Assembly: GCA_041671125.1 (NCBI GenBank)
Contig: JBAZCA010000002.1
Coordinates: 137,529 to 201,528 of the forward strand
DNA from: Patescibacteria group bacterium
Lineage (GTDB): Bacteria > Patescibacteriota > Patescibacteriia > Patescibacteriales > JBAZCA01
Direction of reading: 5' to 3'
Length of the DNA stretch: 64,000 nt
Made by a program: the position numbers and the translations under genes
Notes under the pieces: generated by a model
The model's database searches: none
What the model was told of the DNA's origin: nothing
The model's input: the letters and a program-made list of their open reading frames with translations, nothing else
In this document: piece after piece, positions 6,967 through 59,029 of the stretch
How positions within the stretch are numbered: the stretch's first letter is position 1
Layout of the letters: each line of letters begins with the position of its first letter

Positions 6967-8268
6967 CTATTCTATCCTCTTTATGTCAGCTCCGAGTTTA
7001 TTAAGGCGGCCGACAATATCTTCGTATCCGCGTTCAATGGAATAGGAATTCCGGAGCACTGACTGTCCGCGGGCGGCAAGCATGGCGATAAGTAAATTTA
7101 TAGACGGCCGGAGCGCCGGGGGGCTGATTATTTCCGCCGGCTTGAGCTCGGTCGGGCCGGTAACGGCAACCCGGTGCGGATCGTAAAGCGCCACGTCGGC
7201 GCCGAGCTTATTCAACTCGGTGTAATAGATCGCCCGGTTTTCGTAAATCCAGTCATGCACCAGGGTTTTCCCTTCAGCCTGGGTTAAAATCGGGACAAAA
7301 AGCGGCAGGTTGTCAATATTTAAACCCGGATAAGGGAGCGGATGGATTTTGTCCGGCAATGCTAGAAGCCGGGAGGGGATGACCTCAATATCAACGAGGT
7401 CAAAATATCCATTCTCGGATTTGTAAATTTTTGAGATTTTTAATTTTTGGCCCATAACCCGGAGTTTTTCAATTTCCAGCCTTAAAAAATCAATCGGACA
7501 GCGCGTTATTTTAATCCGGGATTTTGTCGTTATGGCTATGGAAATAAAAGCCATGGATTCAACCGGGTCGGGCATAACCGGATAATTTTCCACCGGCGCT
7601 AATTTTTTCACTCCGGAAATTACGAGCTTGTTGGTGCCGATACCGGAAATGGAGGCCCCGGCCGCGGAAAGGAAGCAACATAAATCCTGCACCATGTAAT
7701 TGGACGAAGCAAAATAAATTTCCGTTTTTTTACTCCCGAGGATCGCGGCGAAAATCGTATTTTCCGTGGCCGTATCGCCGGTCTCGTGCATGGTTACCGA
7801 GCTGTCGCGCGGTTTTAATTTAACAACCTCGTATCGGCAGCCGCTATCTTTTATAGCAAAGCCCATCTGTTCCATGGCGAGCTTATAGGGGTTAACCGTC
7901 CTTTTCCCGAGCTTACAACCAGAACCTTTAGGCAGGCTGAAGCGGTCAAAAAGCGGTGAAAGCGACCCCATGAGAAGCAGAGCCGCCCGGGTTTTCGCGA
8001 ATGACTCCTGGTTTAAATTTTTCAGGCTGATTTTCCCGCCATTCACGATTTCCAGCTCATGGGCGCCGATCCATTTTATTTTCAGGTCGATTGATTTAAG
8101 GGTTTCAACCATCCTCTTTACTTCTTCAATAACCGGAACATTAACCAAGGTTGTACGTCCTGGAATCATCGGCATAGCCGCGAGAATCGCTACAGCCGAA
8201 TTTTTCGCCGAATTGGTCGCGACCGTCCCTTTTAATCTTTTTCCCCCGTTTATAACGTAGTTTGACAT
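6967..8268 (-). CDS. murA: UDP-N-acetylglucosamine 1-carboxyvinyltransferase
   Basis: EPSP-synthase/MurA fold over the full length. INGGKRLKGTVATNSAKNSAVAILAA; Cys-containing loop PKGSGCKLGKRTV. Confidence 0.9.
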   Translation of the reverse strand: MSNYVINGGKRLKGTVATNSAKNSAVAILAAMPMIPGRTTLVNVPVIEEVKRMVETLKSIDLKIKWIGAHELEIVNGGKISLKNLNQESFAKTRAALLLMGSLSPLFDRFSLPKGSGCKLGKRTVNPYKLAMEQMGFAIKDSGCRYEVVKLKPRDSSVTMHETGDTATENTIFAAILGSKKTEIYFASSNYMVQDLCCFLSAAGASISGIGTNKLVISGVKKLAPVENYPVMPDPVESMAFISIAITTKSRIKITRCPIDFLRLEIEKLRVMGQKLKISKIYKSENGYFDLVDIEVIPSRLLALPDKIHPLPYPGLNIDNLPLFVPILTQAEGKTLVHDWIYENRAIYYTELNKLGADVALYDPHRVAVTGPTELKPAEIISPPALRPSINLLIAMLAARGQSVLRNSYSIERGYEDIVGRLNKLGADIKRIE

Positions 8269-28042: not shown

Positions 28043-29173
28043 ATGACTCTATCAGTAAAAAAACGGATACTATTTTCCGGCGGGGGAACGGCGGGCTCGG
28101 TGAGTCCGCTTTTGGCGATTTACGATAGAATAACCTCACCCCCAACCCCTCTCCTTATTAAGGAGAGGGGAGAGTTTGAATTTTTCTGGATTGGAACCAA
28201 AAATGGAATTGAGCGGGAAATGGTTAAGCGCGAGGGCATACCTTTCAAGGCCATCTATTCCGGAAAATTACGCCGTTATTTCAGCCTGAAAAATTTTTCC
28301 GACATCTTTTTTTTAAAACTCGGATTTTTCCAGTCGCTTTTCATCATGCTAAAATGGCGGCCGGATTTAGTTATGAGCGCCGGCGGATTCGTTAGCGTCC
28401 CGGTTGTCTTCGCGGCCTGGGTCTTACGCGTCCCGGCGCTAATCCATCAGCAGGACGTCCGGCCGGGTTTAGCCAATAAAATAATGGCGCCGTTCGCCAA
28501 AGTGATTACCGTCACTTTTGAAAAATCATTAAAAGATTACGGCGAAAAAGCGGCATGGGTCGGGAATCCGGCGAGGAAAGTTCTCACGACTAAAAACTCA
28601 CAACTCAAAACTCAAAATTTTTTTAAGGGCGCGGATGAGGATAATAATTTGCCGGTTTTGCTAATTGTCAGTGGCGGTACCGGAGCAATGTTTATAAATA
28701 ATTTAGTCGCTAAATCAAAAAGCGAGCTCACAAAATTCTGTCAGGTTATTCATGTAACCGGTAAGAATAAAATTCCAAACTCCATCCCGCAAATTGTGGG
28801 ACCAAATATCAAATATCATCTTTTTGAATTCCTTCCGGCCGATAAAATGGCAGAAGCCATGAAAAAAGCCGACCTGGTCATAACAAGAGCCGGCATGAGC
28901 TTTTTAACCGAGCTTTCTTTTTTAGGCAAACCGGCGATAATCATTCCGATTCCGGATTCGCACCAGACTGACAACGCGCGGGTTTTTTTAGAAAGGGAGG
29001 CGGCGGTTATTTTAGAACAAAAAAATCTGGACGAGGATAAATTCGTTTTTCAGGTAAAATCTCTTTTAACGGACGTCCGGACACGCGAAAAACTTAGTGC
29101 CAACATAAGCCGGATCATGAAACCGGGAGCGAACGAAGAAATGCTGAAAATCATCAGCCGGTTGCTGGCTTGA
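28043..29173 (+). CDS. murG: Undecaprenyldiphospho-muramoylpentapeptide beta-N-acetylglucosaminyltransferase
   Basis: G-loop GGGTAGSVSPLLAI; C-terminal TRAGMSFLTELSFLGKPAIIIPIPDSHQTDNA. Contains two repeat-derived in-frame insertions (see findings). Confidence 0.9.
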   Translation: MTLSVKKRILFSGGGTAGSVSPLLAIYDRITSPPTPLLIKERGEFEFFWIGTKNGIEREMVKREGIPFKAIYSGKLRRYFSLKNFSDIFFLKLGFFQSLFIMLKWRPDLVMSAGGFVSVPVVFAAWVLRVPALIHQQDVRPGLANKIMAPFAKVITVTFEKSLKDYGEKAAWVGNPARKVLTTKNSQLKTQNFFKGADEDNNLPVLLIVSGGTGAMFINNLVAKSKSELTKFCQVIHVTGKNKIPNSIPQIVGPNIKYHLFEFLPADKMAEAMKKADLVITRAGMSFLTELSFLGKPAIIIPIPDSHQTDNARVFLEREAAVILEQKNLDEDKFVFQVKSLLTDVRTREKLSANISRIMKPGANEEMLKIISRLLA

Positions 29174-29273
29174 TTACTCTGCCTGCCAGTTCGGCATTCA
29201 ATTCGCCGGCCAGTTTTTCGGCGGCTTTTTTTGTTATTCCCGTGCGGGAATAGTAGGTGATGAGGGTTTTCAT
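29154..29273 (-). pseudogene. N-terminal remnant of a flavodoxin-like gene
   Basis: The minus-strand ORF MKTLITYYSRTGITKKAAEKLAGELNAELAGRVIKPATG* resembles the flavodoxin N-terminus and phosphate-binding loop (MK.LIvYYSrTGNTkk.Ae.ia). It stops after 39 codons, inside the murG 3' end. Confidence 0.45.
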
Positions 29274-29287
29274 GGGTATGTAAAATT

Positions 29288-29515
29288 TTACTCGCAATCT
29301 CTGCACATGCATTTGCATATTTTATTTACACATTCAGGGCTGTAGCCGGATTTGGCTGGAGAATCATAAACGGAGCAATCTATCGCTTGGCATTCTTGGT
29401 CTGACTTGCACTTGATGCTTTCTTTGGCTTCAACCGCGGGTTTTTGTTGGGCAGGGGCACTACCGCAACCAGACAGTAAAAGGACGGATATCAGTATTAA
29501 AAATATATGTTTCAT
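29288..29515 (-). CDS. Small Cys-rich lipoprotein
   Basis: Lipobox LLLSGC after a signal peptide. The roughly 56-residue mature part contains 8 further Cys (CKSDQECQAIDC...CVNKICKCMCRDCE). Confidence 0.55.
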   Translation of the reverse strand: MKHIFLILISVLLLSGCGSAPAQQKPAVEAKESIKCKSDQECQAIDCSVYDSPAKSGYSPECVNKICKCMCRDCE

Positions 29516-29694
29516 AAAATTAGGGTTAGAACATTACGAGTATCCGAAATTTTGTGCAACAATAGCGGAACGGAATTTAGGCGAAGGCTTCCAATACCTA
29601 TCAGAACACTAATAGGTCCAATTATAACAACTAAGATGTTATACCAATTAACTGCTATAAACCAGTCAACTAGTTTATTTAATAAAGAAATCAT
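29512..29694 (-). CDS. Small hydrophobic protein, ATGA-coupled to the Cys-rich lipoprotein gene
   Basis: 60 codons with one clear TM stretch (WYNILVVIIGPISVLIGIG). Its stop overlaps the downstream ATG (ATGA). Confidence 0.35.
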   Translation of the reverse strand: MISLLNKLVDWFIAVNWYNILVVIIGPISVLIGIGSLRLNSVPLLLHKISDTRNVLTLIL

Positions 29695-29899
29695 AAATGA
29701 TTATTTTAAAACTTCACCTAACGCAAGCGCAGCGAGCACATTTCGTCTAACGTTTCGGCGTATCTGAAGTTCTGCGGAGTGAAACGGAGCAGAATTTGGG
29801 CGAAGCTAGTAAAATAATCTTTTAATTTTTTAAATCTTTTATAGTGTTTATAATCGATGTGGAATGCACCCATTTCGTCGGACACTTTTGTCCACATAA

Positions 29900-30709
29900 T
29901 CAACCTTTGGCGGCAATGGCGTAATACTTTGATGGCGGCATCCTAAGATCACCCTGAATCCTAATATTATTGTAATAATATATCTGATGGTAAATTCTTT
30001 CAATCAGTTCACCCTCTGTTTCACACCGGTTCGGGTTTTCCAGCTCCAGCTTGAACTGCGAATAAAATGATTCCTGATGATGATTTTCCCAGGGACTGCC
30101 TTTCTTGCTCATTGACACAACCACCCCTAGTTTTTCCAGAAATACCGCGTGCTCTTCAGACTGATATTCGGATCCTTGGTCTGAATGGAAATATCGGGGC
30201 AGAATGCCCCGTTTCCTGATAGCATCCATGACTGCCGCTTTAACCAAGTGCCGGTTGTGCCGGCTGGATACGGCGAAGCCGATTATTTCCTTGCCGTAAA
30301 CGTCAATTACCGTGGCCAGATAAAGAAACCTGTCTTTGTGCCGGATGTAGGTGAAATCGGCCGCCCAGGCAATATTGTGATCAGATATATCTTTGTCTTT
30401 TATCTCATTCCTGTAATGAGCGACCGGCAAATTGATATCGCCTTTCTTTTTTGGCCATTTGCGGCGGCAGAGCCGGGGCTTTAGTCCGTTTGCCTGCATT
30501 ACCCGGAATATTTTCTTGTGGTTTTTTCCGAGGACAATGGCTACCCGGCGGTAGCCGTAGGCCGGATTGGAATCCATGACTTCGACAACTTCCTTTCTTA
30601 CTTCTTCATCCTGAACTTTCTTTTTTGACCGGTAATACAGAGTGGAACGGGCAATTCTTAGTTTCCTGGCTAATGCTTTTTTAGATATCACTCCTTTTTC
30701 TGCCAGCAA
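29900..30709 (-). CDS. IS3-family transposase OrfB (DDE integrase domain), normally expressed as an OrfAB fusion by -1 frameshift
   Basis: WAADFTYI (D), HSDQGSEY (D), and an ENHHQESFYSQFKLE region (E), giving the DDE triad spacing typical of IS3. Confidence 0.9.
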   Translation of the reverse strand: MLAEKGVISKKALARKLRIARSTLYYRSKKKVQDEEVRKEVVEVMDSNPAYGYRRVAIVLGKNHKKIFRVMQANGLKPRLCRRKWPKKKGDINLPVAHYRNEIKDKDISDHNIAWAADFTYIRHKDRFLYLATVIDVYGKEIIGFAVSSRHNRHLVKAAVMDAIRKRGILPRYFHSDQGSEYQSEEHAVFLEKLGVVVSMSKKGSPWENHHQESFYSQFKLELENPNRCETEGELIERIYHQIYYYNNIRIQGDLRMPPSKYYAIAAKG

Positions 30710-30716
30710 TCTGGCC

Positions 30717-30965
30717 TTAGCGATTTTTTTTCCCCTTGCCCGAGTCGAGCATTACTTCGGCGATTATCATCTTCAGTTGTTGGTTTTCCCGCCGCAGGCG
30801 GGCTACCTCCAGCGTATCCGCTCCGATCTTGCCTCGCCCGAGCCAGCCGTAGATGGTATTGGTGGAAATTCCAAATTCTTTGGCCGCCTGATAGACGGAC
30901 AGGCCTTCGGCCTTGATTCTTTCCACGATTTTATCCCTTATTTCCTGGCTAATTCGTTTAGCCAT
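30717..30965 (-). CDS. IS3-family transposase OrfA (helix-turn-helix)
   Basis: HTH (LSVYQAAKEFGISTNTIYGW) followed by a leucine-zipper-like LEVARLRRENQQLKMIIAE. Confidence 0.85.
   Translation of the reverse strand: MAKRISQEIRDKIVERIKAEGLSVYQAAKEFGISTNTIYGWLGRGKIGADTLEVARLRRENQQLKMIIAEVMLDSGKGKKNR
30734..30741 (-). other. Probable programmed -1 frameshift slippery run (GGGAAAAAAAAT on the coding strand)
   Basis: An A8 run sits at the orfA/orfB overlap. A -1 shift yields ...GKGKK-IAKARLLAEKGVISKK, continuous with OrfB. Confidence 0.6.
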
Positions 30966-31238
30966 ATTGTTGGCAATGATTAATTTAAATACTAGCTATT
31001 CCTATTTTAAACCATTGCCGCTTTATGTGAAAATAGGTGTCCGAATTTTGGGGTGCATTCCAAACATATAAAAACGAATTTCATTTTTTCCTCATATTCG
31101 GTGTTGTACGTAGTAAATTTTTTATCTGGTTTTAAAATGTATAAACTTAATCTTCTCTAAAAAGAAAATTTGATTTTTTGTTTTGAAAAAATGGAAGAGG
31201 GGAATTAAAGGGGTGAATTCCATTTTTTTCAAAACTCA

Positions 31239-32054
31239 TTATTCGACAATTATTTTAAAGAATCTACCTATTTTGCTTCCAATATCAAGCTCTTTAAATT
31301 CTTCAATTCCTACATTTGCATCTTTAAAATCTGTAACACTGACCTTATCGCATACTATTTCAATTCCTTGTCGATTATGATTAAGCATCAGTTTTATCTT
31401 ATTCTGATTACTTTTGTCTTGAAATAACAGAAAAATTCCTCCATTAATATCAGTATCAACTTTTTTATATTCTATATTCTCACACGTCAAATGGCCAAAA
31501 CCATAAAAAGGAACATGATACCATGCTCCTTTTTCATTTATGTCTTTCGTGCCAGTTTGTCTAATTTCTATCTTCGCCTCTTTAGATTTTTCATTTATTA
31601 AAATTTGACCGATTTGCCACCCTTGTATAGGTAAGCTACCACCATTTTTTTCAATAGTTTCAAAATTTAAAACTCTATTCTTGAAAAAATCCAAATCTTT
31701 ATTTTCTTTAGAGCTAGAAGAAGAATTATGTTGATTATTATTAAAATAGTTTTTAGCTCCAACCTGCTCTCCAAATTCTATTGAATCAGAATCAATCGTA
31801 TATCCGTTTTTTTCAAGAAAATCTAAACCTGTTAAGACTGCTGTTGCTGGATCTGCGGCTCGTTTTGAAAATGTTTTCCAGGTTTTTTCCCACCAGTGTT
31901 TTTTTTCTTTCTTCACCTTAACAATAAACATATATCCAATGCCGTTAACCAATAAAAGACTGGCGAGTGCTCTATCTGGTATTTCCCATTCAATGGTATT
32001 TTTTAAAGGCGCTTTGCTTTCCACGCGTGGAATAGAAGTTAAATTTTGTGGCAT
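31239..32054 (-). CDS. AT-rich orphan protein with N-terminal membrane anchor
   Basis: Intact 271-codon ORF. Hydrophobic stretch LASLLLVNGIGYMFIV. Asn/Lys/Ser-rich low-complexity linker. No recognisable domain. Confidence 0.45.
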   Translation of the reverse strand: MPQNLTSIPRVESKAPLKNTIEWEIPDRALASLLLVNGIGYMFIVKVKKEKKHWWEKTWKTFSKRAADPATAVLTGLDFLEKNGYTIDSDSIEFGEQVGAKNYFNNNQHNSSSSSKENKDLDFFKNRVLNFETIEKNGGSLPIQGWQIGQILINEKSKEAKIEIRQTGTKDINEKGAWYHVPFYGFGHLTCENIEYKKVDTDINGGIFLLFQDKSNQNKIKLMLNHNRQGIEIVCDKVSVTDFKDANVGIEEFKELDIGSKIGRFFKIIVE

Positions 32055-32119
32055 AAATTTTGTTAAATTAAAATTGTCTTTGTAGCGGAGCGGAGAAGAC
32101 TCCTTATATCCGAACTAAT

Positions 32120-32148
32120 TTGACTAAATAACTAAAATTAAATAAAAT
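32120..32148 (+). promoter_or_regulatory. Possible promoter reading into the integrase remnant and murC
   Basis: TTGACT, a 17-nt spacer, then TAAAAT. Followed by the strong SD AAGAGGAGG before ATG 32182. Confidence 0.4.
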
Positions 32149-32181
32149 ATAGGTATAATAATTCCAGGTATAAGAGGAGGT

Positions 32182-32379
32182 ATGGCTGGAAACAACAATT
32201 ATCCGAGTAAAAATCCGCTGGAACGCCTTAAACGGGAGATGAAACTCCGGAATTTTAGTAACAGGACGGTTAAAGCTTATCTATATTATATAGCAGATCT
32301 GCTAAAGTTTGCAAATTTTTACTATTTACTTAATTATGGACATCTCCAAAATAAAAAAAATCTACATGATCGGGATTAA
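32182..32379 (+). pseudogene. N-terminal fragment of a tyrosine recombinase/integrase (SAM-like N-domain only)
   Basis: NPLERLKREMKLRNFSNRTVKAYLYYIADLLKF matches the integrase N-terminal core-binding motif (L...ir.r.yS.rT.k.Y..wi..f..F). Similarity ends after about 45 aa and the ORF runs out of frame into murC. Confidence 0.55.
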
Positions 32380-33742
32380 GGGCGTAGGGATGACTATGCT
32401 CGGCCAGTTTCTCGCGGAAAAAGGCTTTAGCGTTAGCGGGTCGGATACTGAGGAAAAATTCATGACCGAAAAAGCGCTCGCTAAAGCCGGCATTCAGGTA
32501 ATTGAAGGCTTTAATGAAAATAACATCCCGCCGGACGCCGACCTTATAATCCATTCCATCGCCTATAACCCGGAAAACAACTCGGAAGTCGCGAAGGCTC
32601 AAACCGGAAAAATAAAGACCCTTAATTACGGCGAAGCGGCCGGTATGTTTTTTAACGAATATTACGGCATTGCCGTCGCCGGATCGCACGGCAAGACTAC
32701 TACTACGGCCTGGCTCGGATACGTGCTCCTGAAATCAGGATTTCACCCCAATGTCATGGCCGGTTCGCACGTCCCCCAGTTCGGCGGAACGAGCATTGCC
32801 GGAGACTCGGATTATCTTGTCGCCGAGGTGGATGAATACGGCAACAAATTCCAGTATTACCGCCCGCGGGTCGCGCTCTTAAATAACATTGATTATGACC
32901 ATCCGGATTTTTTTCCGACTCCGGACGACTATGAAAAAGTATTTATTGAATTCATAAAAAAAATCCCGAAAAAGGGTTTTCTTGTCGCTAATTTTGACGA
33001 CCCGGTTATAAAAAAAATTGCCCGGGTAAATTGCTTAGGCAAAGTTATAAGCTACGCTTTGAATGATTCGGAAGCCGATTATATCGCTTCGGAAATAACC
33101 CAAAAAGGCGACCGCCAGTATTTCCGCGTTATGGCCGAGGATAATGATTTGGGAATTTTTTCCATCCGGCTTTCCGGCAGGCATAACGTTTTTAACGCGC
33201 TCGCGGTTATTGCCGCGGCGGTTGAGCTTTCCGCCGGGCTTTCGGACATAAGAGAGCATCTCGGCGAATTCGCCGGGACTGACCGGCGGATGGAATTTTT
33301 AGGCGAATTTAACGGCGCGGCTCTATACGACGATTACGCGCATCACCCGACCGAAATAAAGACCACTCTGGAAGGGGTAAGGGAAAGCCATCCGGATAAA
33401 AAATTAATCGTAGTTTTTCATCCGCATACTTTTACGAGGACTAAAGCGCTCTTAAACGACTTTGCCCGAAGTTTTGCCGCGGCTCACGAGCTTATTGTTC
33501 TTGATATCTACGGTTCAGCCCGGGAAAAACAGGGCGGAGTGCATTCTAAAGACTTAATTGAAAAAATAATTTTAAGAAACGCTGAAACAGGGAATACGAC
33601 CCAGACGGTAAGACACATCGCGACCTTGGCCGAGTGCGAAAAATATTTAAGCGGTCGGCTTGGGCGCGGCGATTTATGCCTTCTTATGGGCGCCGGCGAC
33701 GTATTTAGAATTGGAGAAAATCTCGTAACCCGTAACTCATAA
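32336..33742 (+). CDS. murC: UDP-N-acetylmuramate--L-alanine ligase
   Basis: IYMIGIKGVGMTMLGQFL; P-loop VAGSHGKTTTTAWL; DYAHHP. Start moved to MDISKIKK (32336). Confidence 0.95.
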   Translation: MDISKIKKIYMIGIKGVGMTMLGQFLAEKGFSVSGSDTEEKFMTEKALAKAGIQVIEGFNENNIPPDADLIIHSIAYNPENNSEVAKAQTGKIKTLNYGEAAGMFFNEYYGIAVAGSHGKTTTTAWLGYVLLKSGFHPNVMAGSHVPQFGGTSIAGDSDYLVAEVDEYGNKFQYYRPRVALLNNIDYDHPDFFPTPDDYEKVFIEFIKKIPKKGFLVANFDDPVIKKIARVNCLGKVISYALNDSEADYIASEITQKGDRQYFRVMAEDNDLGIFSIRLSGRHNVFNALAVIAAAVELSAGLSDIREHLGEFAGTDRRMEFLGEFNGAALYDDYAHHPTEIKTTLEGVRESHPDKKLIVVFHPHTFTRTKALLNDFARSFAAAHELIVLDIYGSAREKQGGVHSKDLIEKIILRNAETGNTTQTVRHIATLAECEKYLSGRLGRGDLCLLMGAGDVFRIGENLVTRNS

Positions 33743-33836: not shown

Positions 33837-34790
33837 ATGGACCAAAATAAATCCGTAAACATTAGATCTAACATCCCCCTCGCGCCTTACACCACCTTTA
33901 AAATCGGCGGTCCGGCGAAATTTTTTTGCGAAGTAAAGACTAAAGCTGAACTTAAAAAAGCTATTGCTTTTGCCCGAAAAAACAAAGAAAAAATCTTTAT
34001 TATCGGTGGCGGAAGCAACCTGCTCGTAAACGACGCCGGCGTAAACGGACTAATAATTAAATTTTCTAACAACAGCGTAAAAATCGTAAAAAATATCCTG
34101 ACTGCCGGAGCCGGCGCGAGCCTGGCTGACGCGCTAAAAGCCGCTACGCTAAAGGGGCTTTCCGGACTGGAATGGACGTCCGGCATTCCGCGCGCCACGA
34201 TTGGCGGGGGAGTGAGGGGTAACGCCGGAGCCTTTGGAGCGTCAATGGGAGATTGCGTGAGCGAGATTCAGGTTTATGATTTAAAAAAAAATAAATTCAT
34301 GAAATTCACGCGCGCTGAATGTTGCTTTAAATACCGGGAAAGTATTTTTAAAGAAGAAGAAAAATATTTAATCTGGGAGGTTAAACTGGAATTAAAAAAA
34401 GACGATCCAAAAAAAATTAAAAACCAAATCATGGAAAATCTTAAATTAAGAAAAAACACTCCGGCAATACCTAGCGCCGGAAGCGCGTTTAAGAATATTC
34501 TCCTGGAAGAAATAGAAAAAGCCAATCCGGAATTAGCAAAAAGGCTTAACCGGATGGAAGCGGTAAAATTCGGAAAAGTCGGCGCCGGACTGATAATTGA
34601 CAAAATTCTTGACCTTAAAGGAAAAACAATCGGTGGCGCGAAAATATCGGAAGAGCACGGTAATTTTATAGTTAACACGGGAAAGGCTACCGCTGAAGAC
34701 ATTATAACGCTTATAAGTTTTATTAAACAGCAATGCCGGGATAAACTCGGCCTTGAGCTTCGGGAAGAAATTCAGTATCTTGGGTTTTAA
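33837..34790 (+). CDS. murB: UDP-N-acetylenolpyruvoylglucosamine reductase
   Basis: PLAPYTTFKIGGPAKFF...IIGGGSNLLV...GLSGLEW.SGIP...GG..GNAGA. Confidence 0.9.
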   Translation: MDQNKSVNIRSNIPLAPYTTFKIGGPAKFFCEVKTKAELKKAIAFARKNKEKIFIIGGGSNLLVNDAGVNGLIIKFSNNSVKIVKNILTAGAGASLADALKAATLKGLSGLEWTSGIPRATIGGGVRGNAGAFGASMGDCVSEIQVYDLKKNKFMKFTRAECCFKYRESIFKEEEKYLIWEVKLELKKDDPKKIKNQIMENLKLRKNTPAIPSAGSAFKNILLEEIEKANPELAKRLNRMEAVKFGKVGAGLIIDKILDLKGKTIGGAKISEEHGNFIVNTGKATAEDIITLISFIKQQCRDKLGLELREEIQYLGF

Positions 34791-43936: not shown

Positions 43937-43965
43937 TAACTTATTTAAAAAATAAAATAACGGTT

Positions 43966-44253
43966 ATGGAAAATGAATCAAAAATATTTGAATCAAGTGC
44001 TGTGGAAGCGCTTGAAAATAAAAAACAAATTGCTTTAGAAAAAATTATCGGCGAACATGTGCGGACTGCCAAGGAGGCGTTAGATAGGGTGCAAGGGGCT
44101 CTTGTATTTTTTAAATTAGGGCTGGAATTGGGGAGGGAAAATCCCGAAATTGCCGAAAAAATAATTTCCGAAATATTTGAGGAATTGCGTATTCAAGAAG
44201 TGGGAGGCCAAAAGACACTGGGTGGAATGAGACGGTCAATAATAGATGAATAG
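43966..44253 (+). CDS. Hypothetical protein
   Basis: Intact 95-codon ORF, helical/charged, with no motif. Confidence 0.35.
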   Translation: MENESKIFESSAVEALENKKQIALEKIIGEHVRTAKEALDRVQGALVFFKLGLELGRENPEIAEKIISEIFEELRIQEVGGQKTLGGMRRSIIDE

Positions 44254-44343
44254 GCGAATCTATTTAATAAGTTTATTTTTCAAATGCGTAAGTCCTAAAG
44301 TTTTATAATTTACTATGCCAACCTACATCTTTTAGCGGAGTAT

Positions 44344-44372
44344 TTGACTAATTTTTTCTCTTTAGCTAATAT
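44344..44372 (+). promoter_or_regulatory. Probable sigma70-type promoter of hicB
   Basis: TTGACT, a 17-nt spacer, then TAATAT, 25 nt upstream of ATG 44397. Confidence 0.55.
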
Positions 44373-44396
44373 TAAAACATAAAAATAGCTTAGTAT

Positions 44397-44615
44397 ATGC
44401 GCAAAATTGATCTAAAAAACGTGGTTTGGAAAGAAGGGAAGTATTACGTTTCCTGGAACTTAAATACCGGCATTTCCAGTTTTGGCGACTCAAGGAAGGA
44501 AGCTTTAGAGAGTCTTAAGGAGGCACTGGAACTCTATTTTGAAGATATGCCGGTTTCAAAAATCGCTAAAGTGGAACGGCCGTTTCTCGCGCCGCTTCTT
44601 TTTAAGCATGCCTAG
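44397..44615 (+). CDS. hicB: HicB-like antitoxin (UPF0150 N-domain only)
   Basis: VVWKEGKYYVSWNLNTGISSFGDSRKEALESLKEALELYFED matches the HicB/UPF0150 pattern. Overlaps the hicA-like ORF. Confidence 0.7.
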   Translation: MRKIDLKNVVWKEGKYYVSWNLNTGISSFGDSRKEALESLKEALELYFEDMPVSKIAKVERPFLAPLLFKHA

Positions 44616-44832
44616 GCCGATCAAGCTAAGATTAATTATCAAAGTCCTTAACGAAAAGGGCTTCTTTTTTGTTTGCCAAAAAGGTTCGCACGCTAAGTTC
44701 AGGAAGTAGGGCAACCCGGCTAAAACCGTAATCGTGAAAATGGGCAAAAAGGAGGTGCCGCATGGAACTTTTCAGTCAATCTTACTCCAGTCCGGTCTGA
44801 AAGAACGCGATTTCAGGGAAGAAGTTAAATAA
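44608..44832 (+). pseudogene. hicA: hicA-like toxin gene interrupted by an in-frame TAG (44707-44709)
   Basis: MPRPIKLRLIIKVLNEKGFFFVCQKGSHAKFRK*GNPAKTVIVKMGKKEVPHGTFQSILLQSGL: the HicA pattern (..GSH..f......tv......l..Gt..sIl.q.Gl) is continuous across the stop. Confidence 0.7.
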
Positions 44833-45028
44833 CTTTAAAATATCCATTATGCATTATCCAATATTTATTTTACCGGCAAAAAGCCGTACCGGACATTGCT
44901 ATTCCGATCATTAGATTATAATACCTTAATATTCGCCCTGATAATCGCGCTGTTCTACTTTTAGCACCATCTATAAGTCATCCACCAAGGCCGTTGATTT
45001 CCTCGCTATTTTAAGCTAAAATAAAAAC

Positions 45029-45295
45029 ATGCTTTACCAAACAATTGGCTACCTGGCCGCGTTTTTTATTACCATTAGTTTCATTCCTCAGGTAATAAAA
45101 TCCTATAAAACCAAAAAGGTTGAAGATGTATCTATCGGCTTAATTATTACGACCCTTATCGGCACTGTTCTTTGGTGGTTTTACGGGTTAATACTAAAAG
45201 ACGGTCCGCTTTTAGTCTATAATACTATTCTGGGAATCGTCGTAATTTGCCAATTGCGTTTAAAAATTAAATATGGACGAAACAAACTTTCATAA
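45029..45295 (+). CDS. SemiSWEET / PQ-loop sugar transporter (3-TM half-unit)
   Basis: 88 aa with three TM helices. IGYLAAFFITISFIPQVIKSYKTK carries the PQ motif and closely follows known bacterial SemiSWEETs. Confidence 0.85.
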   Translation: MLYQTIGYLAAFFITISFIPQVIKSYKTKKVEDVSIGLIITTLIGTVLWWFYGLILKDGPLLVYNTILGIVVICQLRLKIKYGRNKLS

Positions 45296-58030: not shown

Positions 58031-59029
58031 ATGGCTAAAAGCGATAATACAATAAAAATCCATAAGGACTCTCTGACCGGCCACGTAACCGGTTTTCTTG
58101 AATATTGTGAAGTGGAAAAAGGCCTCTCCCCTAAGACCGTGGAAAATTATTCGCGTTTTTTAAAAAAATTTACTTTCTGGCTTAACGGTTGCGGACTTAA
58201 AAATTTAAGACCCGGGGAACTGAGCGACAAGGTTATCTGGGACTACCGGCTCTACCTCTCCCGCGCCAAGGACTCCCGGACCAGCCAGAACCTAAAAAAA
58301 ACCACCCAAAACTATTACCTGGTAGCTTTAAGAGCACTTTTAGATTATTTTTCCATTAAAGACATAAAATCATTAGCGCCGAATAAAATCCGTCTGCCAA
58401 AATTGACTGACAAGGATAAGGTGATAAAATTTTTAAGCATCAGCCAGGTGGAAGATCTTCTGTCTCAGCCGGATATAAATACCGAAGCCGGCCTCCGGGA
58501 CCGGGCGATGTTGGAAATTCTCTTTTCAACCGGTTTCCGCGTATCTGAGTTAGTGTCTCTTAATATAAACCAGTTTAATATCCCAGTCATTGAAAAGCAC
58601 CTAAAAAACGGGAAAAGTTTTGAATTGAATATTATCGGTAAAGGCGGACGGGCGCGGGTGGTTTATTTTTCTCCGCGGGCTCTTCATTGGCTGGCTAAAT
58701 ATTATAATAAGCGGAAAGATAACGAAAAACCGCTTTTTATTAACTACCGCTCCCCTGCTATTGCCGGAGCCAGACTTTCCATCCGCTCGGTAGACCGGAT
58801 AATTGCTAAATACGTGAAGACAGCCGGTCTGCCAATTTCCGCCACCCCACATTCGCTCCGGCACTCTTTTGCGACCGATTTATTAAACCAGGGCGCGGGT
58901 TTAAGGGACATCCAGGAACTATTGGGCCATAAAAATATTTCCACCACCCAGATATATACCCATATAACCAACAAAAAACTCCGCGAAGTTCACGAAAAAT
59001 TCCACGGAATCAAGGAAATAAATATCTGA
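58031..59029 (+). CDS. Tyrosine recombinase, XerC/XerD family
   Basis: N-terminal SAM-like domain (FLEYCEVEKGLSPKTVENYSRFL). Catalytic ..GLRVSEL.., HSLRHSFATDLL, LLGHKNISTTQIYTH. Confidence 0.9.
   Translation: MAKSDNTIKIHKDSLTGHVTGFLEYCEVEKGLSPKTVENYSRFLKKFTFWLNGCGLKNLRPGELSDKVIWDYRLYLSRAKDSRTSQNLKKTTQNYYLVALRALLDYFSIKDIKSLAPNKIRLPKLTDKDKVIKFLSISQVEDLLSQPDINTEAGLRDRAMLEILFSTGFRVSELVSLNINQFNIPVIEKHLKNGKSFELNIIGKGGRARVVYFSPRALHWLAKYYNKRKDNEKPLFINYRSPAIAGARLSIRSVDRIIAKYVKTAGLPISATPHSLRHSFATDLLNQGAGLRDIQELLGHKNISTTQIYTHITNKKLREVHEKFHGIKEINI

Follow-up and report, generated by a model that had tools for sequence, protein, structure and literature searches.

A probably decayed, recombinase-linked hypervariable locus between murG and murC in a Patescibacteria genome

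The closest described counterparts of the locus analyzed here are sedentary chromosomal integrons and CALINs, genomic- or defence-island hotspots, IS200/IS605-derived PATEs, and Xer-dependent modules. Elements of the IS200/IS605 type, such as IS608 and ISDra2, insert 3′ of a tetranucleotide (TAAC, for instance), carry subterminal hairpins and are mobilized by a Y1 transposase. Some members of the IS3 family, e.g. IS1397, insert in palindromic REP sequences. In integron integrases, the IntI-specific additional domain is the defining feature of IntI (PMC9668308).

The segment between the cell-wall genes murG and murC was analyzed in a window of 64,000 nt from a Patescibacteria group bacterium. 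It is accessory and variable: the four related genomes each carry different genes here. It is not one recent foreign insertion; more likely than not, the 3.2 kb upstream of murC are what decay has left of an old gene-swapping site, also present in relatives: a recombinase-linked hypervariable locus, ancient and vertically inherited, in one Patescibacteria lineage. The features are as follows.

28043–29173, plus strand: murG (Pfam Glyco_transf_28 N and C domains, E 3e-30 and 5e-29)
29186–29273, minus strand: flavodoxin gene remnant, first 29 codons (Flavodoxin_4 profile positions 1–29)
29288–29515, minus strand: gene for a 75-aa Cys-rich putative lipoprotein (LSGC lipobox, 8 Cys, weak LPAM_1 match)
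29512–29694, minus strand: 60-aa hydrophobic ORF from the ORF list, of uncertain reality
29716–29859: junction repeat, 5′ part and AT-rich center (ACCTAAC at 29716–29722; GTCTAAC at 29745–29751, then GTTTCGGCGTATCTGAAGTT)
29860–31062, minus strand: intact IS3-family insertion sequence of 1203 bp (inverted repeats, rve and HTH_Tnp_1)
29900–30709: orfB of the IS3 element (rve, E 3e-26)
30717–30965: orfA of the IS3 element (HTH_Tnp_1)
31063–31238: junction repeat, 3′ part (half-site TTTCCTCATATTCGGTGTTGTACG at 31087–31110; conserved hairpin H at 31180–31235)
31239–32054, minus strand: AT-rich 271-aa gene (GC 0.314; 12 homologues)
32055–32181, no strand: divergent control region (promoter scan and conservation)
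32182–32335, plus strand: 5′ stub of a tyrosine recombinase gene (~45 homologous codons; the ORF runs on out of frame to 32379, inside murC)
32336–33742, plus strand: murC, the right flank (three Mur ligase domains, Pfam)
33837–34790: murB, downstream of murC

All five items that the initial annotation listed between murG and murC were recovered from the ORFs and Pfam matches, at coordinates exact or a few bases off. They differ in age and origin: the stub and the flavodoxin gene are ancient, the AT-rich gene was horizontally acquired, and the IS was found without a second copy. At the left edge, the flavodoxin remnant annotated at 29154–29273 on the minus strand is present, but its ORF spans 29154–29318 and homology is confined to 29186–29273. 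This stretch is 94% identical in nucleotides to the full-length gene of locus L001 (8503–8591) and 93% identical to L004; relative to L001, ~415 nt are missing, corresponding to flavodoxin codons ~30–156, an intergenic hairpin and the last murG codons. The flavodoxin gene, full-length in L001, L002 and L012, is an old resident, as it forms the left edge even in L012, where MurC is 67% identical. The murG gene shares 72–75% nucleotide identity with L001 and L002; as left neighbor of the locus it is confined to the window clade, L012 having an MFS transporter gene there. The coupled small genes described as encoding a TM peptide and a Cys-rich lipoprotein correspond to two minus-strand ORFs with a 4-nt overlap. 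The 75-aa Cys-rich protein matches a 115-aa Cys-rich protein encoded at the corresponding place in L012 (2707–3054; BLASTP E 6e-5), the gene for which sits immediately left of the first L012 junction repeat, and its gene is probably an old locus resident. The 60-aa ORF had no match in Pfam and PADLOC searches. Its 3′ third (29540–29587) is a partial junction-repeat copy with a reading frame different from that of the other copy, and a direct repeat joins 29566–29586 with 29785–29805 (0.02 expected by chance).

The IS3-family element is complete, as had been claimed, with inverted repeats, an HTH_Tnp_1 domain in orfA and an rve domain in orfB. Its ends are 40-nt imperfect inverted repeats (29860–29899 and 31023–31062) starting with TGGAATGCACCC, and the A-run slippery site GGGAAAAAAAAT lies at the orfA/orfB junction. 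No target-site duplication was found, the flanks being ATG and AAC; no second copy is present within the window, and the exact OrfA sequence was found on no contig but that of the window itself (206,823 bp). The element interrupts the center of the AT-rich gene's junction repeat, and its deletion in silico makes the window unit colinear with L012 3195–3375.

The AT-rich gene has a GC content of 0.314 against 0.445 ± 0.032 in the remaining window (z = −4.2), and equal-sized stretches outside the island never fall under 0.36. The compositional shift ascribed to the whole island holds for this gene and its flanks but not for the rest, e.g. the IS (0.46) or the lipoprotein gene (0.43). The gene had also been called an orphan, yet it has 12 homologues at 49–66% identity; in six other contigs the homologue is followed 22 nt on by a 258-aa HSDR_N_2 gene, a partner that is absent from the window. 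The GC content of this two-gene module fits the 0.33-GC hosts L009 and L010, and the AT-rich gene is horizontally acquired. An AF2 model of the protein (pLDDT 76) gave no significant PDB fold match.

The 5′ remnant of a tyrosine integrase abutting murC was confirmed by a Phage_int_SAM_4 match (E 1.6e-5, 25.7 bits, narrowly missing the 27-bit cut-off) and by tblastn against residues 4–37 of the L012 integrase (41% identity over 34 residues, E 6e-4). Variable DNA gives way to conserved DNA at 32100/32101, and a remnant repeat motif, GTAGCGGAGCGGAG, lies at 32083–32096 in the control region. The same region holds a promoter-like TTGACT-N17-TAAAAT at 32120–32148 (promoter scan 10/12) and TATAAT at 32154–32159; the number of promoter-like sites in the region is not above that in shuffled sequence. 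Of the promoter and SD signals annotated upstream of murC, the promoter-like site stood up, being identical or near-identical in L001, L002 and L004, and this conservation suggests that it may act as the murC promoter, whereas the strong SD GAGGAGG at 32174–32180 serves the stub ORF rather than murC. The murC start at 32336 (MDISKIKKIY) is conserved among relatives in MurC alignments; gene callers chose a later ATG, and the P0015 call is 458 aa long.

L001, L002 and L004 are the closest relatives (MurC 80–86% identical), and L012 is more distant (67%). In all three close relatives the locus is bordered on the left by the flavodoxin gene and on the right by the promoter-like site with the stub's 3′ part; stub segment 32263–32320 is common to them, and 32150–32262 is missing there. 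Each has cargo of its own: GNAT and PNPOx genes, GH3 with a type II R-M system (L002), or a membrane protein; between L001 and L004 the flavodoxin 5′ ends are 99% identical while the cargo is completely different. In the window clade, all ten relative- or window-specific cargo genes are minus-strand genes and point away from the stub; some of the small ORFs lying between repeats in L012 are on the plus strand. No intact integrase is present at the locus in the window clade though cargo differs between close relatives, so turnover needs a recombinase in trans or ordinary homologous recombination.

L012, sampled over 17 kb of a 463-kb contig, is the sole intact integrase-plus-array case found. 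It encodes an intact 273-aa tyrosine recombinase (7178–7999), with murC from 8001 and downstream synteny as in the window. The recombinase scores 221.3 bits with NF040815 (cut-off 220), and among PDB entries its sequence best matches the integron integrase VchIntIA (E 1e-43). It reaches 199.9 with TIGR02249 (cut-off 265), though the N-terminal half matches well, and has no counterpart of IntI4 residues ~211–242, the IntI-specific additional domain. In L017, an independent 3′ integrase remnant abuts murC. The stub parts shared by relatives, the intact L012 gene and the L017 remnant show that the integrase–murC link is ancient and vertically inherited.

The cargo of L012 is separated by imperfect-palindrome repeats with YCTAAC...GTTRRRY ends and covarying inner arms. 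Three 207-nt copies are 96–98% identical, and diverged units occur alongside them; the near-identical 187-nt blocks have TAAC at both borders. In the window, the repeat at 29716–29859 is 82% identical over 51 nt to an intergenic palindrome of L001 (9301–9350), and 31063–31238 is 81% identical over 160 nt to L012 3375–3524, where core genes reach just 66–72%. In the latter part, the half-site gave an nhmmer E value of 0.015, the DNA fold z is −2.9, and the end of hairpin H lies 3 nt away from the AT-rich gene's stop codon; the half-sites on either side of the IS3 element do not pair together. Across seven units, 91.6% of cells are paired, six pairs show compensatory changes and none of 500 shuffles reached the observed score, statistics inflated because the arms were picked visually and in view of their pairing. 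AAC/GTT is paired every time and outer core positions are often unpaired. The repeats are nearly restricted to the locus (~300 kb examined): half-site HMM matches with E < 0.1 occur only upstream of murC, bar one L001 match (268 kb searched). The switch from variable to conserved DNA in L001 and L002 occurs at ...TAAC, ATTTCAnnTAAC. On the left side of the locus, genes follow one another without recognizable repeats between them (the window's lipoprotein and flavodoxin genes; a deacetylase gene in L012).

The ancestral layout, intact in L012, would have had a minus-strand flavodoxin gene at the far edge, then a run of mostly minus-strand cargo genes with imperfect-palindrome junction repeats between them, and a promoter with a plus-strand gene for a 273-aa XerA/IntI-like tyrosine recombinase, the murC start lying 1 nt past its stop codon. 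In the window lineage, the recombinase gene would have been truncated after ~codon 45, its promoter and 5′ end being retained, most likely because transcription now reaches murC from them. The cargo would have been reduced to the single AT-rich gene from a low-GC donor, without the usual nuclease-like partner; an IS3 element would have entered the center of this gene's junction repeat, and a deletion of ~415 nt would have removed flavodoxin codons and the 3′ end of murG. The junction repeats are plausible candidates for integron-like recombination sites. Tentatively, cargo turnover may be, or may once have been, driven by the recombinase acting site-specifically on the repeat cores (TAAC/GTTA) in the manner of a sedentary integron, in which case the window would hold a CALIN-like remnant.

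The initial annotation saw a decayed integrated element; on that model, a single integrative element (prophage, ICE or island) with its own integrase entered where murG adjoined murC and then decayed. An IS and a compositionally deviant gene do lie side by side with remnants of an integrase and of another gene, and L012 has a KilA-N gene, a kind often phage-associated. However, murG does not adjoin murC in any of the 13 related loci whose sequence extends upstream of murC; the stub does not belong to a recently arrived element, as its 3′ part and the promoter are common to relatives with different cargo and an intact orthologue exists in L012; integrase–murC adjacency holds across relatives with 65–67% MurC identity, and the flavodoxin gene is part of the locus in all these genomes. 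A repeat search found no att-like direct repeats joining 29174–29290 with 32300–32340, the window has no tRNA gene, and just one gene is deviant in composition. The single-element origin is thus largely refuted and quite improbable; what survives is that an integrase once acted or resided here, in a variable segment with one foreign gene. An assembly artefact, with the MAG contig chimeric at the IS or the AT-rich segment, is scarcely credible: IS elements and repeats are common mis-assembly points, but both IS flanks are colinear with one intact L012 unit, the outer flanks (murG/flavodoxin and stub/murC) are ordered as in three independent relatives, and several sources list the same 206,823-bp contig.

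Unlikely, but better placed, is a passive hotspot of dispensable DNA upstream of murC, where cargo is exchanged by homologous recombination in the flavodoxin and murC flanks after DNA uptake, the repeats being selfish hairpin elements (IS200/IS605-type PATEs or MITEs) and the old integrase gene unrelated to them. The near-identical L012 blocks, bounded by TAAC, with hairpins near both ends and in one orientation, fit elements mobilized by a Y1 transposase, and a Y1_Tnp gene immediately precedes murC in L013; L001 and L004 differ in cargo, both without an intact integrase, and unrelated small genes without an integrase lie upstream of murC in many Patescibacteria. On the other hand, the remaining 60 kb of the window and ~200 kb of other loci contain no half-sites with E < 0.1, bar the L001 match, neither the window nor the repeat-bearing loci contain a Y1 transposase homologue, and the R′′/R′ and L′′/L′ arms of diverged units form pairs that span the full unit, not two separate end hairpins. 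Moreover, variable/conserved boundaries coincide with repeat cores, and an IntI/XerA-like recombinase gene adjoins the repeats. In a further reading, L012 would be a bona fide integron with IntI, attI and attC cassettes, and the window a CALIN. Cargo genes pointing away from the integrase, unit ends matching RYYYAAC/GTTRRRY, and the VchIntIA and N-terminal TIGR02249 matches speak for this, but the missing domain, the TIGR02249 score below cut-off, R-L box spacers of 4–5 nt vs 0–1 nt, unlike the symmetric unpaired attC spacer, and several units of 150–200 nt or longer make it very improbable indeed.

The favored reading, a decayed recombinase-linked locus, can be set against the known systems. 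The IS3 element is typical of its family in its 1203 bp, TG...CA imperfect inverted repeats, orfA (HTH) and orfB (rve DDE) and A-run −1 frameshift site, unlike it in having no 3–5 bp target-site duplication, and resembles IS1397-type members in its placement inside a palindromic repeat. Like genomic- and defence-island hotspots, the locus has fixed flanks with hypervariable content among close relatives, an R-M system (L002), a compositionally foreign gene, an IS insertion and gene remnants; unlike them, it has a long-conserved resident recombinase gene and locus-specific structured junction repeats, with neither a tRNA gene nor an att duplication. The L012 blocks share with PATEs their short, ORF-less build, terminal hairpins, TAAC borders, lack of target duplication and single orientation, but the repeat-bearing loci have no Y1 transposase, the repeats did not turn up in other parts of the DNA examined, and both ends of a unit pair together. 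Xer-dependent modules (pdif modules of Acinetobacter plasmids, IMEX elements at dif) likewise combine an Xer-type tyrosine recombinase with discrete accessory modules between recombination sites, here candidate ones; a 28-bp dif-like site of two 11-bp arms and a 6-bp spacer is not recognizable, and the palindromes here are long and hairpin-forming.

From sedentary chromosomal integrons and CALINs, such as the Vibrio cholerae superintegron with its VCR attC repeats, the locus differs in its 273-aa recombinase lacking the IntI-specific domain, its asymmetric R-L spacers, some units far above 141 nt, the head-to-tail fusion of the integrase with the essential gene murC, and the missing repeat at some gene boundaries. 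It resembles them in a recombinase gene divergent from co-oriented, unrelated accessory genes; in gene-separating imperfect palindromes whose ends are of the RYYYAAC...GTTRRRY type and which combine a conserved AAC/GTT core with covarying inner arms and a variable center; in near-identical repeats within a single array (L012); in cargo of kinds typical of integron cassettes (GNAT, R-M, small unknowns); and in being passed on vertically with the chromosome. As known from its sequence, the window resembles a CALIN struck by an IS.

At face value, the segment between murG and murC is ordinary: two core genes are separated by a foreign gene, an IS and the stub of an integrase gene. The ORF list, a Pfam scan and the raw sequence confirmed the five items that the initial annotation had placed there:

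28043-29173, murG, clear call
29186-29273, minus strand, flavodoxin-like ORF (extent of true homology)
29288-29515, minus strand, Cys-rich lipoprotein ORF of 75 aa, with a 4-nt overlap with the 60-aa ORF
29512-29694, minus strand, hydrophobic ORF of 60 aa
29860-31062, minus strand, IS3-family element
31239-32054, minus strand, AT-rich gene of 271 aa
32182-32379, plus strand, stub ORF of 65 codons; tyrosine-integrase SAM-like domain (N-terminal) recognised in residues 13-45
32336-33742, murC, clear call
33837-34790, murB, clear call

Rfam returned nothing in 28900-32500 at E <= 1 apart from one chance snoRNA match, and the AT-rich gene, the lipoprotein and the hydrophobic (TM) ORF had no match in PADLOC. 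Compositional deviance is confined to 31063-32181 (GC 0.25-0.31), the IS, lipoprotein and flavodoxin parts being near the genome mean; nowhere in the 64 kb is the composition further from the rest than in the AT-rich gene (GC 0.314, z = -4.2).

The segment had been regarded as a decayed integrated element splitting a murG-murC pair that is normally adjacent in dcw-type clusters. The two genes are contiguous at 0 of the 13 related loci with sequence upstream of murC. Flavodoxin and cargo, i.e. variable genes between shared edges, lie between murG and murC in the window clade, an amidohydrolase gene does so in L013, L014, L016 and L020, and the left edge of L012, a more distant locus (MurC 67% identical) with an intact integrase, is an MFS gene, not murG. 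Neither att-like direct repeats linking the two island junctions nor a tRNA gene within the 64 kb was found. Of the further traits of a classical integrated island, polymorphism in content is present, four genomes having four different contents. It is well supported that the locus is an ancient recombinase-linked hypervariable site and not a single recent insertion, that its version in the window is decayed, and that the parts of this version differ in history.

The loci of the three closest relatives (L001, L002 and L004; MurC 80-86% identical) are colinear with the window on both sides, and murG adjoins murC in none of them. L001, another Patescibacteria MAG, is the closest genome (MurC 81% identical). 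All three share with the window the minus-strand flavodoxin gene, a promoter-like TTGACT-N17-TAAAAT just upstream of murC and the 3′ part of the stub (window about 32263-32320); absent from them is window 32150-32262, where the stub has its SD, its start codon and about its first 27 codons. Their cargo consists of GNAT and PNPOx-like genes in L001, a GH3 hydrolase gene and a type II methyltransferase/endonuclease pair in L002, and one membrane protein gene in L004. All these relative-specific genes and all window genes of the locus are encoded on the minus strand and thus diverge from the plus-strand stub. The flavodoxin 5′ ends of L001 (8456-8596) and L004 (1-141) are 99.3% identical, their cargo is entirely different, and their murC regions are 93% identical. 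The 29 codons retained in the window are 94% identical at the nucleotide level to L001 at the syntenic position, far above the 72-80% of the flanking genes. The high identity of this short 5′ piece suggests recent exchange or strong constraint. Unrelated small genes without an assigned function, mostly on the minus strand, lie directly upstream of murC in many Patescibacteria (L013, L015, L016, L017 and L054), and L013 carries a Y1 (IS200-like) transposase gene there (7182-7739); the 5′ side of murC seems to be a general insertion-tolerant spot across the phylum.

Full-length flavodoxin genes carry Flavodoxin_4/5 domains, and the window ORF proved to be a remnant of such a gene, as initially annotated. 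Where L001 has about 415 nt, the window has only about 34 nt, so that the final codons of murG, an intergenic hairpin and roughly codons 30-156 of the flavodoxin gene are lost; the fine alignment of window 29152-29185 with the L001 murG/flavodoxin junction was not resolvable. A terminator-like hairpin (TCGCCGG...CGGCGG plus a T-run; 29203-29234, plus strand) lies 30 nt past the murG stop codon and is the antisense of the retained flavodoxin stub. Since two substitutions relative to L001 strengthen its stem, the flavodoxin stub may have been kept as a murG terminator once the original intergenic hairpin was deleted.

The IS3-family element is complete, as had been proposed: a DDE transposase (orfB; rve, E 3e-26), an HTH orfA (HTH_Tnp_1, E 2e-6), an A-run (-1) frameshift site seen in the raw sequence where orfA stops, and terminal inverted repeats of the form TG...CA (TGGAATGCACCC... 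and ...GGGTGCATTCCA; 40 nt, imperfect, 75% complementary) are all present. In the rve/HTH pair, frameshift site and ends it resembles the IS3 family, but it differs in the absence of a 3-5 bp target-site duplication, the flanks being ...CGATG and AACAT.... The non-coding DNA around it is built from junction units, imperfect palindromes found between cargo genes. On its left, window 29716-29808 matches a palindrome of L001 and the 5′ part of an L012 unit. Directly to its right, window 31066-31219 is 81% identical over 160 nt to L012 3375-3524; the flanking core genes of the two loci, at 66-72%, fall below this value. Because the window minus the IS is colinear with L012 3195-3550, the element has simply inserted into a junction unit, at its AT-rich centre. 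The two half-sites (the sides of a unit) that flank the IS do not pair together; the split unit is dead and may be a hybrid. The conserved repeat segment reaches to within 3 nt of the AT-rich gene's stop codon, and its L012 counterpart extends as far as the stop of a KilA-N gene, which is unrelated. Unrelated genes ending at a similar segment are the pattern of different cassettes with a similar downstream repeat.

The AT-rich gene has 12 homologues, which on six contigs are followed, 22 nt on, by a gene for a 258-aa HSDR_N_2 (PD-(D/E)xK-like) protein. This conserved module of a 274-aa protein and its HSDR_N_2 partner (L006 8001-9623, L009 125-1751, also L007, L008, L010 and L011) is AT-rich even in a 0.48-GC host and may be an uncharacterised mobile or defence-type pair; against PADLOC the partner gave a weak mad2 match only. 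The GC of the pair is 0.33-0.36 whatever the host, equalling host GC only in 0.33-GC genomes, and this independence points to transfer from a low-GC donor. A remnant of the partner was sought in the window by tblastn and none was found. Deletion of the partner by the IS was rejected, given this result and the colinearity of the IS-free reconstruction with an intact L012 unit; the partner was thus never present or was lost before the IS arrived. The AF2 model of the AT-rich product (pLDDT 76) has an all-beta N-terminal part and a beta-rich C-terminal domain, and its N-terminal hydrophobic stretch is modelled as strands, not as a membrane helix. A fold search of the PDB gave no match at E < 0.07; an immunity protein of a polymorphic toxin (8owu_D) was matched in part, with prob 0.98 and E 0.16, and serves as a lead only.

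The stub abutting murC is recognisable as the 5′ remnant of an integrase gene, in agreement with the initial annotation, by its N-terminal SAM-like domain: it scores 25.7 bits against Pfam SAM_4, under the 27-bit cut-off, and tblastn aligned it with the N-terminus of the syntenic intact L012 integrase at 41% identity over 34 residues (E 6e-4). Nothing is left of the catalytic domain (RKHRH-Y). When the source integrase was sought with the stub peptide in an index of 5.8 billion proteins, only the self match was returned. The L012 integrase is a 273-aa tyrosine recombinase (SAM_4 + Phage_integrase) whose gene ends 1 nt before the murC start codon; the downstream order murC-murB-small ORF-Memo is alike in L012 and the window, and the far edge of L012 is a flavodoxin gene 6 kb upstream. 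L017 has a stop-riddled 3′ remnant of the integrase gene immediately upstream of murC. Because the L012 N-terminus aligns with the window stub and L017 retains this 3′ remnant, the integrase-murC fusion is older than these lineages, and its decay took place separately in each. In the remaining relatives sampled (MurC 62-66%), murC is preceded by an amidohydrolase gene or by small unknown genes, the latter mostly on the minus strand, and there is no integrase.

The L012 integrase scored 221.3 against the NCBIfam "XerA / integron integrase" model, barely above the cut-off of 220, and 199.9 against the integron-integrase model TIGR02249, below the cut-off of 265. Its best solved relative by sequence is VchIntIA (E 1e-43), in an alignment that skips chain residues about 211-242, the IntI-specific additional domain; its alignment with XerA is colinear. 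The only intact tyrosine recombinase seen in the window, a full-length 332-aa XerC/D-type enzyme (58031-59029, plus strand; TIGR02225 230 bits, below cut-off), is a candidate for acting in trans.

Gene callers place the murC start at a later ATG, 32366 (458 aa, MIGIKG...). The 10 codons upstream of it (MDISKIKKIY) are conserved in relatives down to 62% identity, and this sequence conservation favours a start at 32336 rather than 32366. An SD-like sequence for murC is absent in all close relatives. Since murC, directly after the integrase in L012, would be transcribed through the promoter and stub, these have presumably survived for its transcription, and the locus may exemplify the retention of a defunct mobile-element gene whose promoter is needed by an essential gene of cell-wall synthesis.

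In the variable region of L012, a 207-nt direct repeat occurs three times, at 96-98% identity, alongside several diverged units. Each unit comprises a 5′ half (YCTAAC, 4-5 nt, an 11-nt arm), a variable centre of 30-160 nt and a 3′ half (the complementary arm, 0-1 nt, GTTRRRY). Homologous units lie at cargo boundaries in the window, L001, L015, L016 and L004, where they flank the one cargo gene on either side. Half-sites were defined by nhmmer profiles, which replaced a regex definition that was too crude, and over 268 kb matches at E < 0.1 were located only upstream of murC, with one exception in L001. This exception (L001 20255-20284, E 0.037) is at the place matching window 43937-45272, a 1.3-kb stretch with no ORF >= 110 aa and low GC (0.39), close to where the synteny of L001 ends (window 43899); the two may represent a second variable locus. 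Across seven units, 91.6% of arm positions are paired, with compensatory double changes at six arm positions and 0/500 shuffles reaching the observed score, in a test biased towards pairing because the arms were picked by eye. AAC/GTT is paired in 7/7 units, and outer core bases are often unpaired. Most units fit the cores RYYYAAC (R″) and GTTRRRY (R′), e.g. GCCTAAC...GTTAGGC, GCCTAAC...GTTAGAC and GTCTAAC...GTTAGGT, and some depart by one base. TAAC bounds the three near-identical L012 blocks on both sides, and in L001 and L002 the variable-to-conserved switch beside murC falls at ATTTCAnnTAAC. Between two junction units of L012 (6050-6310, plus strand), a 67-aa ORF is followed by a textbook intrinsic terminator; this plus-strand ORF is an exception to the minus-strand orientation of cargo. 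A 14-mer of the repeat gave 33 single matches in viral contigs, which were dismissed as chance because none extends to the half-site model.

What is notable is that a tyrosine recombinase gene has stayed fused to the start of murC across deep divergence. On its upstream side, accessory genes for restriction-modification, acetyltransferase, membrane and unknown proteins turn over fast, and structured repeats whose cores are of the integron type lie among them. We infer that cargo exchange may have run as in a sedentary integron, with the recombinase acting at the repeat cores. The main rival explanation takes the same palindromes for IS200/IS605-type hairpin elements piling up in a passive hotspot. 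We hold it possible, though rather doubtful, that this Patescibacteria lineage has an integron-like cassette platform, in which a small XerA/IntI-like tyrosine recombinase lacking the IntI-specific I2 domain is placed head-to-tail with the essential murC and each cassette lies between long palindromes that fold and have AAC/GTT cores; the window would then hold a CALIN-like (integrase-less), IS-damaged remnant whose recombinase promoter and 5′ end were kept as the transcription entry of murC. Such a platform would represent a living relative of the step from Xer to IntI, and full-text literature searches found no report of integrons in its phylum (Patescibacteria/CPR).

Routes of gene gain in the Candidate Phyla Radiation are poorly understood. 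If the repeats are recombination sites, the locus would be a gene-capture system in these reduced genomes and a natural test case for the evolution of integron integrases from Xer-type enzymes, the two being evolutionarily linked (PMC4792948, PMC7790495). The IntI-specific additional domain around patch III is the defining feature of an integron integrase (PMC9668308; Messier and Roy, 2001), and the L012 orthologue, on which this was tested, is without it. As it fails this defining test for a true integron integrase, the system is not to be classed among the integrons, which it resembles at most in its way of working. Its units also differ from attC, whose symmetric unpaired central spacer, extrahelical bases and length of 57-141 nt they do not share: their spacers are 4-5 nt on the 5′ side vs 0-1 nt on the 3′ side, and their lengths range from 77 to about 200 nt, the window unit measuring about 285 nt once the IS is subtracted. 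The likeness to attC lies in the pairing RYYYAAC/GTTRRRY cores and the inner arms (L″/L′), which in both are conserved in structure more than in sequence.
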